Source: Candidatus Omnitrophota bacterium | GTDB lineage: Bacteria; Omnitrophota; Gorgyraeia; Gygaellales; Profunditerraquicolaceae | DNA length: 64,000 nucleotides | Assembly (NCBI GenBank): GCA_003598025.1 | Contig: QZKH01000002.1 | Coordinates: 206,206-270,205, forward strand | Reading direction: 5' to 3' | In this document: positions 811 through 60,248 of the stretch, piece after piece | Position numbering within the stretch: position 1 is the first letter of the stretch | Layout: every line of letters starts with the position of its first letter | Notes under the pieces: model-generated | Database searches by the model: none | What the model saw: the letters and a program-made list of their open reading frames with translations, nothing else | What the model was told of the DNA's origin: nothing | Made by a program: the position numbers and the translations under genes

Positions 811-899
811 TTTGTGCATGGTTCATAGAGCGTAGTTCATGGATTTGATTAATTTATTCAGAACAGTGCTCTGTGCACGGTGAACCGTGAACTCTATAG
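811..899. repeat. Palindromic heptamer-repeat element (GTTCATR units forward, then reverse-complement units)
   Basis: Seen directly: gcatggttcatagagcgtagttcatgg ... ctctgtgcacggtgaaccgtgaactctatag. The two halves are inverted relative to each other and can form a long hairpin. Confidence 0.7.
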
Positions 900-902
900 A
901 TT

Positions 903-976
903 CGCGGGGTGGAGCAGTCTGGTAGCTCGTCAGGCTCATAACCTGAAGGTCGTCCGTTCAAATCGGGCCCCCGCAA
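903..976 (+). tRNA. Initiator tRNA-fMet (anticodon CAU); CCA not encoded
   Basis: A cloverleaf is readable: acceptor cgcgggg/ccccgca with a C1:A72 mismatch, D-stem gagc/gctc, anticodon stem tcagg/cctga with loop ctCATaa, and T-loop gttcaaatc. The sequence is nearly identical to the E. coli tRNA-fMet that I recall. Confidence 0.85.
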
Positions 977-1166
977 TATTTTTAGAGTCCGTTCTCCCTC
1001 ATAGATAAAACCAACATCCGCCAGAATTATCCTTGATTTTCTTAATATATTTTTCCCTTGAATTATTGATTTGATGAAGTAAAATATAACCTGTAAGTAT
1101 TTGATCCCGGCAGTAGATAAATATTGCAGCAGGTTCATCCGGGATTCCATTCTTATGGAGGTGGGA

Positions 1167-1391
1167 ATGGAAAATATGAAATCGCCCCAGAACTGCTGGC
1201 AATATTGCTCTTGTGTTAAGGCTATTAGAGAGCGCTGTGCTGTTTATAAAGAAAAATATGGGCAGAGATGCTGGTTTCTCGCAGGATGCTCTCCTATGCA
1301 GCCTAGAGAATTCAAGAATTGCTGGGAATGCCCCTGGTATGCTGAAATATCAAAAAGAGAAAAAGTCCGAAACCGGGTCAAACAGGAATAA
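1167..1391 (+). CDS. Small Cys/Trp-rich hypothetical protein (8 Cys in 74 aa)
   Basis: There is a GGAGGTG RBS 4 nt upstream of the ATG at 1167, in frame with the listed ORF 1101..1391. Motifs CWQYCSC and CWECPWY suggest metal binding. No recognisable family. Confidence 0.35.
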   Translation: MENMKSPQNCWQYCSCVKAIRERCAVYKEKYGQRCWFLAGCSPMQPREFKNCWECPWYAEISKREKVRNRVKQE

Positions 1392-1404
1392 TATTTTTGA
1401 ATAT

Positions 1405-2130
1405 ATGACTCCTCGCGATAAATTTAATACGGGAACTGTCTTAAAGCAGCCCCCGTATTTTTTTTATCGGCAGGCCGCAATATTTTTCTTGCTGGTTTTT
1501 ATATCAGCAAATACCTGCACATATTCTTACGCCGAAACCGTGATTCTTAAATCCGGAAAACAGGTCAACGGAGACATCATTGAGAGGACAGATAAGCATA
1601 TAAAAATTGATTTTGAGGGCGTGCCGTTGGTGTATTTTGTTGATGAAATTGACAGGATCGTCCCTGAACCTTCTCCGGAGCTTTTAAAGATAGAAGGCAG
1701 CCTTGACCGTAATGCAGACATAATCCGGCCGGAAGCACAGAGCCCTGAGGAGGAAGTTCCCGCTCAGGAATACGAGAATGAGGTTAACGCAATAGTACAG
1801 GATTCAATGTCATCTATAATGAGCGAATCAAACAGTATTATGCAGGGCTCAGGCAACAAGGCCTCACTGGAAGGGGTAAAGAAAAAATCCGAGGAAGCTT
1901 ATAAAAAACTTCAGAACATGAAAGCGCCGGAAGGGGCCAGCCAGCAGCATCAGCTTTTGGCTGATACTTTCAAGCTTTCCTCTGAACTTATGAAAGCTGC
2001 AATGGATGGCGATCAGGCAAAGATAGCCGAAATAAACAGTAAATTGATGCAGCTTAGGCAAGAGATTACGTCACAGGCCGCGACAAGTAATGTACCGGAT
2101 AGAAACAGTAACACCGGAAATAAAAAATAA
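1405..2130 (+). CDS. Secreted hypothetical protein (signal peptide, C-terminal Q/K-rich coiled-coil)
   Basis: An internal Met at 1405 precedes a hydrophobic signal-like segment (AAIFFLLVFISANTCTYSYA). The listed ORF starts further upstream at 1213. Confidence 0.45.
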   Translation: MTPRDKFNTGTVLKQPPYFFYRQAAIFFLLVFISANTCTYSYAETVILKSGKQVNGDIIERTDKHIKIDFEGVPLVYFVDEIDRIVPEPSPELLKIEGSLDRNADIIRPEAQSPEEEVPAQEYENEVNAIVQDSMSSIMSESNSIMQGSGNKASLEGVKKKSEEAYKKLQNMKAPEGASQQHQLLADTFKLSSELMKAAMDGDQAKIAEINSKLMQLRQEITSQAATSNVPDRNSNTGNKK

Positions 2131-2169
2131 TTTTTTAATTCTATTGTGGAGAGATATTCTTTGGAGATA

Positions 2170-57953: not shown

Positions 57954-58271
57954 TTGGAGGAAATTATGGATAATAAAAAGATATATAATAATGACTTGAT
58001 AGTGTTTTCGATTTTGGGGAGCTTATGCCTTTTGCCGTCTTTATTAATGCTATACTATTTTTTTGTTTCAGAATCCAGCCAACCGCCGTATCTATTAAGA
58101 ATGCTTTTTGAGATTATGCTTTCATCAAAAACCTATGCCCCTATGTGGTCAGAGGTTGATAAAGATCTTTTACTATACCGAGCTATTATTTGGATGGCTT
58201 TAGGTATCGGATTGATAGGTTTTGGAATTTATAAATATAAAAAGGAATCGGTTATTAAGACTAGTTTATAG
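57954..58271 (+). CDS. Small AT-rich hypothetical membrane protein (2 TM)
   Basis: A 105-aa ORF lies between two forward heptamer arrays. Its stop codon is supplied by the next repeat. Confidence 0.4.
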   Translation: MEEIMDNKKIYNNDLIVFSILGSLCLLPSLLMLYYFFVSESSQPPYLLRMLFEIMLSSKTYAPMWSEVDKDLLLYRAIIWMALGIGLIGFGIYKYKKESVIKTSL

Positions 58272-58383
58272 TTGATGGTTCATAGATCATAGAAATAGAT
58301 AAAGTAGGTAGTCACAAAGACACACGACACAAGGACACAAAAATTAGTTCACGGTTCACAGTACACGGAGCACAGTTAATGCA
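58263..58383. repeat. Left terminal inverted repeat of cassette (heptamer units + about 75-nt core aaagtaggtagtcacaaagacacacgacacaaggacacaaaaa)
   Basis: By-eye alignment with the reverse complement of 60092..60248 shows the about 75-nt core differing at only 3 positions. The flanks are more diverged. Confidence 0.75.
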
Positions 58384-58423
58384 CTAGATTCGTTTGAGAA
58401 CTGTTCAGTTGGAGGAATTTAAC

Positions 58424-59104
58424 ATGTATACGATTATAAAAAAAATACTAGCGAAGATAGTTAATAATAAAGATCTAATTGTAACTATTGTAGCTGTTGT
58501 TGCACTTGTAGTTTCCGTTAGGGGATGTTGCGTATCTACGGATGCTTATAGACTATCTAAAGAATCTAAAAATATAGCAAAGGATGCTTTAGATACGGGA
58601 AAATATCAGTTTATCCAAATTAATCGCCCTTATGTATTGATCTCTCCAAAGAAATTCAATGATGGCTCATTTTGGAAAATTCAGCAAAAAAGCAATCACG
58701 TCGAAATTATAGTTAAATACGAAATAAAGAACGTGGGTAACGTTGCGGCAAAAAATATTGAATTACCTGATAATTTAATAATTGGACAAGAGACAAAACT
58801 CAAGAGAGATGCACCTGTTTCTTATAAGAAAATGAGCGAGGTGACATTAGGACCCGGAGATTTTTATGAACTTGTGTGTAGTTTTGTGTTAGATTATTCA
58901 GACGAAGAGGCAGCCAAAAATAATTATGAGTATATTGTTTCGGATTCAAGTGAAGGCCTAACTTTGTTGTTAGCGGTAACTTATACAAACGAGATAGATG
59001 GATTTATGGAATATAGGACAATAGTTGAAAACAGAATTCATAATGATAATGCTTTAATTATCAAATCTGAGATGCTTAATCTCAATACTAAAGCTAAGAA
59101 TTGA
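58424..59104 (+). CDS. Cassette gene A: single-pass membrane protein with unknown extracytoplasmic domain
   Basis: A GGAGG RBS lies 9 nt before the ATG at 58424, and the listed ORF starts at 58394. The TM helix is LIVTIVAVVALVVSV. The region is visibly AT-rich. Confidence 0.5.
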   Translation: MYTIIKKILAKIVNNKDLIVTIVAVVALVVSVRGCCVSTDAYRLSKESKNIAKDALDTGKYQFIQINRPYVLISPKKFNDGSFWKIQQKSNHVEIIVKYEIKNVGNVAAKNIELPDNLIIGQETKLKRDAPVSYKKMSEVTLGPGDFYELVCSFVLDYSDEEAAKNNYEYIVSDSSEGLTLLLAVTYTNEIDGFMEYRTIVENRIHNDNALIIKSEMLNLNTKAKN

Positions 59105-59182
59105 ATTGCAAATAATATAGTTAGAGAGTCGTCTTTAAATAGAAAACACTGTTTTGTATTTAAGAAGCTCAAAAGAAGATCT

Positions 59183-59992
59183 ATGAAAAATTTAGACTTG
59201 GAGAAAAATGCAATAAAAGGGATTCGAGAAGCGATAGCTTGGCATACTATAATAGTGGATGTTTCCCTCGCCAATACTTCTCTTGGGTGGGGGACGGGAA
59301 CATTATTAGAGATAAATAGCAGAAAGTTTATATTAACATGCGCACATGTAGTTAAAAAAGAATATAAAAATAAAGATTTGAGGTTTATTTATCGCTCAGG
59401 AAATTCTTTAAGAGATGCTGATAAAGATATTATTAAAGAAGCTCCGCTTAATGATCTAGTTGAAGCAGATGATAAAGCGTATTCTTTAGAAATTCCAACA
59501 ATTAATAGGTTTTATTCTGATTTTACTGATGATTTAGTCATGCTGGAATTAGAGCCAACAGCAAAAACAATAAGTAATTTTGTTTTTTTTGATGCCTCTA
59601 TAGGGAGAATCATATCTCCTGAAATTGGCATGGCGACTTATATGCTTGGTTTTTCTGTTGAACTAACAAGAGAAATTAATAAATATGGTGTTGGAAATTT
59701 CCATTATTTCTTGGGATCAAAAATCATAGATTTTGCTGCTTCTGACCGAAGCATTGATTATAATAGGCAATTTTTTATCGATTATAGTATTGATGATCAC
59801 TCAGTTGACCTGCATGGTTTGAGCGGCTGTGGAGTATGGACGCGCAAGCCATCTGGAAAGAATAATTTATGGTCTCCAAATCTTTATCTTGTTGGAGTCC
59901 AGGATGCTTTTATCACAGTAACTAGAAAATTTCAGCCTATCCGAGCGACTAGGGGAGAAAGAATAACAGATTTAATTAACAAAACAATATAA
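59183..59992 (+). CDS. Cassette gene B: trypsin-fold (chymotrypsin-like) serine protease candidate
   Basis: The catalytic-triad contexts appear in canonical order: His in LTCAHVV, Asp in DDLVMLELE (compare trypsin DIMLIKL) and Ser in HGLSGCGVW (compare GDSGGP). The region is AT-rich. Confidence 0.5.
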   Translation: MKNLDLEKNAIKGIREAIAWHTIIVDVSLANTSLGWGTGTLLEINSRKFILTCAHVVKKEYKNKDLRFIYRSGNSLRDADKDIIKEAPLNDLVEADDKAYSLEIPTINRFYSDFTDDLVMLELEPTAKTISNFVFFDASIGRIISPEIGMATYMLGFSVELTREINKYGVGNFHYFLGSKIIDFAASDRSIDYNRQFFIDYSIDDHSVDLHGLSGCGVWTRKPSGKNNLWSPNLYLVGVQDAFITVTRKFQPIRATRGERITDLINKTI

Positions 59993-60091
59993 ATAATAAA
60001 CACTTTATGATATGTGTGTAAAGTGGATTTTGGTTTTCTCAATAAGCTATCAGCTCCAGGCTATATTTATCGTGATATACATATAGTTTTT

Positions 60092-60248
60092 CTGTGACCT
60101 TGTGTCTTTGTGACCAACTACTCTAGTTATTACTGTGCTCCGTGAACCGTGATCTGTGAACTCAAGCTTTTTGTGTCCTTGTGTCGTGTGACTTTGTGAC
60201 TACCTACTTTAGCTATTTCTATGAACTATGAACCATCAACCATGAACC
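60092..60248. repeat. Right terminal inverted repeat of cassette (reverse-complement heptamer units + core + an extra partial copy of the gtgtc/gtgac motif)
   Basis: See the left TIR. Its outer end is ctatgaactatgaaccatcaaccatgaacc. Confidence 0.75.

Follow-up and report, generated by a model that had tools for sequence, protein, structure and literature searches.

The intervening sequence (IVS) in the 23S rRNA gene of Coxiella is a selfish element seated in helix 45, the origin and spread of which are unexplained (PMC4990558). It has terminal inverted repeats, a 28-bp stem that is cut by RNase III and an open reading frame (ORF) for an S23p protein, and it carries two or three tandem GACAGAT heptamers, depending on the strain (PMC4990558). 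Tandem heptamers are also known from intergenic DNA: each Xanthomonas genome contains 70-75 convergent pairs of heptamer arrays (PMC4692102), and TAACTGA arrays, whose mechanism is likewise unexplained, are common to Beggiatoaceae, Cyanobacteria and Bacteroidetes (PMC4679880). Here, a stretch of 64,000 nucleotides from a Candidatus Omnitrophota bacterium (contig QZKH01000002.1, positions 206,206 to 270,205; called the window below) is described, in which arrays of the heptamer GTTCAYR occur at nine dispersed sites. On balance, and with modest confidence, these sites are regarded as copies of one family of selfish foldback elements resembling IVS.

In this Omnitrophota lineage, the elements have entered the genome at gene boundaries, one can nest inside another, and in two places their arms enclose horizontally acquired genes. 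In other phyla, GTTCAYR arms enclose genes of PF05635, the S23p or Avd-like four-helix-bundle family. The layout of these last loci is that of ORF-bearing 23S IVS, in which tandem heptamers occur as well. The plan of a complete element would be 5'-(ATTAG)(GTTCAYR)n, a spacer or cargo, and (YRTGAAC)n(CTAAT)-3'.

Heptamer arrays, hairpins and cassettes of the window

The window was searched for two adjacent GTTCAYR units (GTTCAYRGTTCAYR, with at most one mismatch), and dinucleotide-preserving shuffles of the 64 kb served as controls. The pattern matches 37 times, compared to 0.11 ± 0.40 times in the shuffles, and every match lies inside one of the nine intervals listed in a preliminary description of this DNA, all of which are thereby confirmed, with none elsewhere. 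Lone heptamers outside the arrays are not enriched in the window. Tandem Repeats Finder reports arrays with a period of 7 or 14 at all sites except 811-899 (eight out of nine), and about half of its 44 rows for the window have one of these periods. With head-to-tail 7-nt units at nine dispersed places, the family belongs to the tandem heptamer arrays, being similar to short tandemly repeated repetitive (STRR) sequences or heptameric simple sequence repeats. By reading of the sequence, two unit types are distinguished, GTTCATR and GTTCACR, the latter with the variants GTGCACA and GAGCACA, and ATTAG is the common lead of the arrays. The higher-order, ATTAG-led unit that had been described, (AG)ATTAGTTCAYRGTTCAYRG, is found at 25476, 25535, 57819, 57857 and 58343, and as a variant at 25502 and 47204.

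All nine sites are intergenic or overlap only a stop codon, the exceptions to this placement being related arrays in purD and purQ. The one in purD (15182-15208) is (GTCCACA)x4, one base off GTTCACA; it is in frame and encodes part of LPSTVHSPQST, in a loop for which both sister genomes have another length and another sequence. Further arrays of period 7 or 14 lie in ORFs of the purine pathway, at 8718-8750 (AGCCGTC AGCTATC x2.2) and 5480-5503 (ACTGTGC x3.4). A CRISPR-like array was dropped as a candidate because the spacers have no regular length, and phase-variable contingency repeats because the arrays lie outside ORFs and at 3' ends. At gathering thresholds, the only Rfam match in the window is the tRNA.

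Four solo elements consist of forward units, an unrelated spacer of 13-44 nt and reverse units:

811-899, no strand assigned: E1, solo foldback element, hairpin of -27.7 kcal/mol, z -2.5
2583-2661, no strand assigned: E2, solo foldback element, stem of ~25 bp, -32.7 kcal/mol, z -7.5
19086-19152, no strand assigned: E3, solo foldback element, an insertion of ~58-65 nt at the junction of the dCMP deaminase gene and nrdR
47181-47270, no strand assigned: E4, nested foldback element between the thioesterase and UPF0047 genes, fold z -5.3

As had been supposed, these elements are able to form long hairpins, with z between -2.5 and -7.5 relative to shuffles. E1 is composed of the forward units GTGCATG GTTCATA GAGCGTA GTTCATG, a spacer of ~44 nt and reverse units; it starts 6 nt past the DivIC stop and ends 2 nt before the tRNA-Met gene (902-977). 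E2 begins 2 nt past the stop of a 144-aa ORF, and E3 ends 3 nt before the nrdR ATG. In E4, the outer ends TTTTAGTTGACAG / CTATGAACTAAAA surround an inner element, ATTAGTTCACAG...CTGTGAACTAAT, whose inverted ends match at 12 of 12 positions, and the minimum-energy fold contains both the inner and the outer stem. The spacers and loops of E1-E4 have no sequence in common.

Such hairpins could be repetitive extragenic palindromic (REP) sequences or their paired form (REPIN), spread as single-stranded DNA by a REP-associated tyrosine transposase (RAYT, an IS200/IS605-like Y1 transposase) encoded by a single gene elsewhere in the genome, with the bracketing of cassettes being incidental. They are indeed intergenic imperfect palindromes present in many copies and in inverted pairs, without target duplication and with a constant 5' tag, ATTAG; passages of one report (PMC3733652) ascribe a conserved tetranucleotide tag to REPs. 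However, the tag reads TTAG instead of GTAG or CGTC (GTAG occurs only once, in E1), and the arms are A+T-rich heptamers in variable number with unrelated loops, rather than one G+C-rich palindrome of 20-40 bp. Moreover, no Y1 transposase is present in the 64-kb window or near the arrays of ~230 loci, and GTTCAYR arms occur across many phyla. Lacking a regular GTAG or CGTC tag and a G+C-rich composition, the elements are not typical of the REP-like family that was proposed at first, and this origin is unlikely.

The remaining arrays of the window belong to two larger islands, at 25.5-26.4 kb and 57.8-60.3 kb:

25476-25567, plus strand: C1 left arm, three ATTAG-led modules of forward units
25568-26272, minus strand: C1 cargo ORF (ORF271), ~234 aa counted from the conserved Met
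26355-26397, minus strand: C1 right arm, one reverse-unit module, 85-95% complementary to the left-arm modules
57819-57892, plus strand: A5, forward-only array of two ATTAG-led modules, beginning at the heptosyltransferase stop codon
57954-58271, plus strand: small membrane ORF, 105 aa, with direct arrays on both flanks (direct-flank score 38)
58263-58383, plus strand: C2 left arm, composed of a CAT-type array, a spacer, a CACAAAG-rich motif, and ATTAG with a CAC-type array
58424-59992, plus strand: C2 cargo, two ORFs of 226 aa and then 269 aa, G+C 0.33
60092-60248, minus strand: C2 right arm, a mirror image of the left one in the order CAC array, motif, spacer and CAT array, the motif being present in one additional copy

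The C2 arms form one long inverted repeat, 80 nt of it at 94% and ~113 nt in all, around 1.75 kb; 58263-58383 and 60092-60248, which had been counted as separate sites, are therefore corrected to two arms of a single structure. A5 additionally pairs with the far right arm, at 60202-60247. When the 150-nt flanks of 56 genes or gene pairs of the window were scored for inverted complementarity, only two stood out, namely the two cargo units, with z 10.2 (C1) and 9.2 (C2), all others remaining below 4. The two islands are insertions.

ORF271 is helical, its C-terminus resembles a winged helix, and it has a weak match to Abi_alpha; its homologues in other Omnitrophota lie in different gene contexts. 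In one of these (L152), the homologue is flanked by that genome's own, different palindromes. This suggests that the arms are host-specific and the cargo exchangeable, in that either cargo lands in resident hairpins or the arms are homogenised within a genome. In C2, the 226-aa ORF has an N-terminal membrane helix, and the 269-aa ORF has a weak PADLOC match to LmuA (6e-7), a weak Trypsin_2 match and a TCAHV motif; this cargo may be a small defence island. The stretch 58001-60000 has the lowest G+C of the window (0.33 vs. ~0.43).

An integron cassette array was also considered and rejected: neither intI nor attC is present, and the arms are convergent half-sites rather than attC. The sole tyrosine recombinase of the window is an Xer-like gene (33700-34560) that adjoins topA and dprA. 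The idea that the elements serve as integration targets has gained some support, as two arm pairs bracket acquired ORFs, inverted flanks are restricted to 2 of 56 genes, E4 is nested, and a 196-nt element has been inserted at a hairpin tip in a related strain pair (see below).

The C1 left array starts 3 nt upstream of the minus-strand start codon of a helicase gene (25473-25476), leaving no room for a Shine-Dalgarno sequence. The nrdR gene likewise starts 3 nt past E3, as opposed to its translational coupling with the deaminase gene in the sisters. Adjoining the C1 right arm, two tandem 86-nt units (26398-26557, 83% identical) each fold into a strong compound hairpin on both strands (z ~-5 to -6.6). 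Their stems differ by compensatory changes, GGTC..GACC vs. GCGC..GCGC and ATAACTTACG/CGTAAGTTAT vs. ACAATTTACG/CGTAAATTGT. These units have no Rfam match, and Rfam gives nothing credible for 25400-26700; they may represent another family of palindromic repeats or else a structured RNA.

Filled and empty sites, gene ends and reading frames

For the deaminase and the DS-like protein alike, homologues carry the annotation Candidatus Omnitrophica/Omnitrophota. The sister contigs used for comparison are the following:

L122 and L123: sister contigs with deaminase identity of 83-85% and the shared gene order purine / SHMT (serine hydroxymethyltransferase) / deaminase / nrdR
L121: a 1.1-kb contig of a 99%-identical strain, in which E3 is present with two substitutions
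L253: a sister with DS-like protein identity of 72%, in which the heptosyltransferase/DS-like gap measures 213 nt vs. 2.48 kb in the window

At the deaminase/nrdR junction, L122 and L123 lack the element, and 20 kb of either contig contains not one GTTCAYR double unit; the deaminase is a few codons shorter at its end there, and nrdR either overlaps it or comes directly after it. In L253, the whole 57820-60296 block is missing, including the small membrane ORF, and the orthologous gap holds a different, G+C-rich palindrome. The presence/absence polymorphism that had been anticipated is thus found at both places. Furthermore, two related loci, L143 and L132 (95-97% identical), differ by a complete convergent element of 196 nt, which sits at the tip of a small hairpin and replaces 6 nt. 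The unit number also differs between orthologous metagenome loci.

L253 has ATTAG-led heptamer arrays of its own. Only the insertion sites are therefore lineage-specific, and not, as was first thought, the family itself, arrays of which occur in many phyla, in viral contigs and in this sister. One L253 array (4721-4770) encodes the interdomain linker LVHSSKFIVHSLK of the heptosyltransferase, of the same length as the unrelated linker in the window orthologue. Arrays are also translated in conserved genes elsewhere: in the region of L150:2847-2867 in a RecG-like gene (ISSQFMVHSLQ) and in that of L141:10366-10386 in a MiaA-like gene (ISSQFTVYSS). Other Omnitrophota possess G+C-rich compound palindromes (L152:3650-3770 and 4480-4720; L253:5790-5915), with the ends TTAGCGGG.../...CCCGCTAA and TTTTTGCGGG.../...CCCGCAAAAA. 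These flank the ORF271 homologue and occupy the heptosyltransferase junction that holds the cassette in the window.

The filled and empty alleles bear on a second possible origin, in which the elements would be classical MITEs (miniature inverted-repeat transposable elements), non-autonomous deletion derivatives of an insertion sequence with heptamer subrepeats in the terminal inverted repeats, moved in trans, the cassettes being composite transposons. The fixed convergent polarity of the inverted repeats, the insertion polymorphism and the 113-nt inverted ends around cargo are what such elements would show. On the contrary, neither of the two filled/empty comparisons (the E3 site and L143/L132) reveals a target-site duplication, small target replacements being found instead. 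The internal sequences are not common to the copies, and the arms are unequal in length. Neither the DNA enclosed by arm pairs nor the gene clusters that recur near arrays (1478 ORFs from 147 loci) contain a transposase. With unrelated loops, a variable unit number and no target-site duplication, the MITE-like label is no more typical of the elements than the REP-like one, and a MITE origin is quite unlikely.

With respect to a co-directional upstream gene, an element begins between -16 and +42 nt from its stop. A genuine, dispersed family of palindromic repeats at gene boundaries, as originally proposed, is present. The repeat also encodes gene termini, as had been noted: the C-terminus KPVHSS* of the dCMP deaminase and its stop are encoded by the 19086-19152 array, and the stop of the small membrane ORF (58269-58271) falls within the 58263 array. 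The claim that each array places stops in every frame holds for seven of the nine sites, where all six frames are closed by stops; at 25476-25567 and at 26361-26393, a single frame stays open. As a source of stops, every reverse unit gives TGA, in every frame. Among the forward units, on the contrary, only GTTCATA supplies a stop, and GTTCATG, GTTCACA and GTTCACG give none. A minus-strand start codon placed inside the 26361-26393 array did not survive comparison: it is the start of the longest possible ORF only, five ORF271 homologues begin at a Met near 26272, and the NCBI start call is 26320.

A function as terminator or insulator had been suggested as well. No T-tract follows the stem at the elements (sequence of E2, E3 and E4, and a scan for intrinsic terminators), and the scan detected no element in 18000-27500; the canonical signature of a terminator is thus missing. 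In a broader form of this idea, the arrays would be cis-regulatory sites selected by the host, such as operators or centromere-like heptad sites, sites of RNA-protein contact, or terminators and insulators at junctions. The omega repressor of pSM19035, for example, binds 7-bp repeats. The position at gene junctions speaks for such a role, as does the resemblance of some units (GATCACA/G) to WATCACW, and TAACTGA arrays have been proposed to act in translation (PMC4679880). Nevertheless, the elements are absent from the orthologous junctions of sister genomes in which the operons are conserved, which makes a host regulatory role very unlikely. Besides the lack of a T-tract, no strand bias is seen, the functions of the flanking genes are unrelated, related arrays lie inside ORFs, and the unit number varies between strains.

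Convergent arrays and PF05635 genes in other genomes

In the genome collection, (GTTCAYR)x3 is present at 120 loci at least, compared to ~17 expected by chance for the whole collection. Among the matches listed, the hosts are Bacteroidota, Cyanobacteriota, Acidobacteriota, Nitrospirota, Methylomirabilota, Desulfobacterota, Planctomycetota and others. The ATTAG-led 21-mer occurs at 27 metagenome loci, many of them with a palindromic build directly past a stop codon, and the triple unit is found in 83 viral contigs. In other phyla, GTTCAYR arrays often abut different heptamers (L015, L018, L019, L028, L036, L069, L089, L113 and L115), among them GTATCGA, GTCCGAW, GTTCCAC, CAACTGA, TGGTCAT, AACCATT, AAACTCA and CCTCAAA, which suggests composite or nested arrays of several families.

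The orientation of adjacent arrays less than 100 nt apart was counted over ~230 loci, a pair being convergent if it reads GTTCAYR...YRTGAAC. Convergent pairs outnumber divergent ones by 38 to 7, and by 8 to 0 in viral contigs (46 vs. 7 together); in the window, all six pairs are convergent. The expected bias in paired orientation is thus strong. These counts weigh on the simplest explanation of the arrays, that of plain microsatellites generated by replication slippage, independently at each site, without mobility or function. The unit number does vary between orthologous loci, and heptamer repeats have been reported as over-represented in many bacteria (PMC4692102). Slippage cannot, however, create a matching inverted arm, a common ATTAG lead, inverted repeats of 80-113 nt enclosing cargo, or a block of 58 nt that separates two otherwise abutting genes. 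Being contradicted by the orientation bias and by the insertion alleles, slippage as the sole cause is hardly credible.

Clustering of the 1478 ORFs from 147 loci revealed only generic families and PF05635 as recurrent, and the ORFs between distant convergent arrays are mostly core genes. The small recurrent ORF family next to arrays is assigned by Pfam to PF05635, the 23S rRNA intervening-sequence protein, related to bAvd. Eight loci have such an ORF at GTTCAYR arms (L003, L022, L044, L067, L071, L112, L127 and L133), seven with E-values of 1e-26 to 1e-40 and L067 by means of the seed hidden Markov model (9e-33). At L044, L112, L022, L003, L127 and L133, convergent GTTCAYR-type arms closely flank the gene, which may point either way. 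L067 has it between complete hairpins; at L071, a clear array is present only on the start-codon side, and the flank test is negative. Inverted flanks with z > 4.5 were obtained for 12 of the first 17 PF05635 genes tested.

The association was also approached without reference to the repeat, by searching plasmids with one PF05635 protein, which gave 24 records, mostly of Nostocales, 14 of which were examined. Tandem arrays stand alongside the gene in 13 of the 14, at 11 loci period 7 scores best in one flank or both, and matching convergent arms are present in at least 10, among them L254-L256, whose right arm is short. The units are specific to the locus: GGGAAAA, GTAGGGA, GGAGATA, GGTGACA, GGCAGAR and GTCAGGA. 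At L251 (GGGCAGGA), the upstream array forms a hairpin by itself, and its flanks are scored as direct. Such genes separate cas6 from cas4 (twice), cas10 from cmr3, the two subunit genes of ribonucleotide reductase (RNR) from each other, and the gene for a secretion protein from that for its ABC transporter. One locus, in an rrn operon on an Azospirillum plasmid, is a true IVS within the 23S rRNA gene, with GGACRGA arms. L246, L247, L250, L257 and L248 are stand-alone PF05635 'four helix bundle' genes in tight operons of cyanobacterial plasmids, the gene being on the opposite strand in the RNR beta/alpha case; four of these five have their own convergent heptamer arms, L250 having direct arrays and L248 traces only.

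PF05635 is homologous to Avd, the reverse-transcriptase cofactor of diversity-generating retroelements (PMC10053308). This homology enters a further scheme, in which the arms are written in place: an activity that adds repeats would extend both 3' ends of a double-strand break, e.g., at a cleaved hairpin tip, with (GTTCAYR)n, and the ends would be rejoined with or without captured DNA. The enzyme could be a reverse transcriptase together with an Avd-like PF05635 protein. Convergent arms would be the automatic outcome, so that the polarity of 46 vs. 7 is explained, as are the missing target duplications and small target deletions, the unrelated spacers, the unequal arms and the heterogeneity of units. 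It also accounts for insertion into the tips of a hairpin and of rRNA helices (L252), and for locus-specific heptamers around PF05635 genes. The scheme is nevertheless purely inferential, and no reverse transcriptase is found near the elements. Moreover, the C2 arms share ~50 nt of non-heptamer sequence at 94% identity, which indicates copying instead of repeat addition, and neither single-armed nor in-ORF arrays are predicted by it. Writing of the arms in place is consequently very improbable.

Nature of the elements and comparison with known systems

According to the reading as foldback elements resembling IVS, the solo hairpins would be cargo-less or decayed members of the class, in which slippage alters the number of units. 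A complete element would be tolerated precisely at the stops of tightly packed genes, where it would replace a few terminal codons, because it blocks all six frames and the genome appears to have nearly no spare intergenic DNA. In read-through transcripts, the stems of 20-30 bp (solo) or ~110 bp (cassette) would probably be cut by RNase III. Such cutting would uncouple the neighbouring cistrons rather than terminate transcription.

Several points weigh against this reading. Neither the window nor the loci examined yielded a mobilising enzyme, a target-site duplication or a conserved internal sequence. Some arrays have a single arm (57819-57892) or are in frame inside ORFs, and these are not explained by a simple model of foldback insertion. 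Cleavage of the window elements by RNase III is presumed by analogy with IVS and Correia elements. Two elements of the window had looked suggestive of better folding on the sense strand, but a test of 16 co-directional cases, based on G-U pairs favouring that strand, gave no such advantage (7 vs. 9, p = 0.41), so nothing specifically indicates selection at the RNA level. Outside the window, homologues of ORF271 are flanked by different palindromes or by none. Furthermore, the window contains no PF05635 ORF, and its cargo genes are unrelated to that family. The GTTCAYR-flanked PF05635 proteins are not monophyletic and cluster only partially in the tree, which implies that arms and ORF are not simply co-inherited.

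A wider proposal, rather doubtful, is that the heptamer arrays of cyanobacteria (STRR), Xanthomonas (GGGAATC) and Beggiatoa (TAACTGA) and those of GTTCAYR are all arms of one IVS-like foldback class. Its gene-bearing form would carry PF05635, and the class would insert itself into the tips of hairpins, operon junctions and rRNA helices and could capture other genes, the arms perhaps being made on site.

The abundance of intergenic heptamers in bacteria, the nature of the rRNA IVS and the role of the abundant stand-alone PF05635 genes have long been unexplained. The window and the loci reached from it tie the three together, as the arms are found by themselves, with PF05635 genes between them or with other acquired genes, and have entered compact operons (cas, RNR, purine/nrdR) without breaking them up. 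If correct, this would describe a new type of prokaryotic mobile element with an unexplained transposition chemistry. It would also provide an annotation marker for recent cassette insertions and for artificially extended or truncated ORFs; in the genome of the window, the repeat has supplied the tail of the deaminase, several stop codons and the helicase gene's 5' region. Intergenic heptamer arrays, the convergent pairs of Xanthomonas, TAACTGA arrays and the Coxiella IVS heptamers are known already, without a mechanism. The bracketing of cassettes and the link to PF05635 appear to be new: in the searchable literature, there is no report of heptamer arms that bracket non-rRNA cassettes, nest, or generally bracket PF05635 genes, and a search for the GTTCAYR heptamer itself gave no relevant match.

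Similar to REP sequences, bacterial interspersed mosaic elements and REPINs, the window elements are palindromic and extragenic, form inverted pairs, carry a constant short tag at one end and leave no target duplication. They differ in the tag, the composition and the build from tandem repeats, and no RAYT is seen in the window or near the arrays examined. In Drosophila, the Foldback (FB) transposons have long inverted arms of short tandem repeats, unequal and variable in length, around a loop that is empty or carries unrelated genes; FB elements are eukaryotic, and no homology to the window elements is implied. The Correia elements of Neisseria are, like those of the window, small inverted repeats at gene junctions that are co-transcribed; they have a conserved core, which is lacking in the window elements, whose arms are tandem repeats. 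Correia elements have a TA duplication, which is likewise lacking in the window elements. Passages of one report describe their hairpins as binding RNase III, being cleaved or protected, and able to alter the expression of neighbouring genes (PMC2649163).

The arrays of cyanobacterial STRR, Xanthomonas GGGAATC and Beggiatoaceae TAACTGA are, like GTTCAYR, short intergenic 7-nt arrays with many copies per genome and a patchy distribution across phyla. TAACTGA arrays have another unit, are direct and lie just upstream of start codons. The convergent pairing of the Xanthomonas type is found for GTTCAYR as well (46 vs. 7).

The 23S IVS of the Coxiella, Leptospira, Brucella and Xanthomonas type sit at the tip of helix 25 or 45 of the 23S rRNA, whereas the window, which contains no rRNA gene, has its elements between protein genes or at their ends. 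The cargo of the window elements is nothing or genes other than PF05635, which is itself optional in short IVS. The IVS are excised by RNase III; for the window elements, the same cleavage is predicted by analogy only. Both have terminal inverted repeats, a long stem and a loop able to hold a small gene, both carry tandem heptamers in the arms in a number that varies between strains, and both are regarded as selfish.

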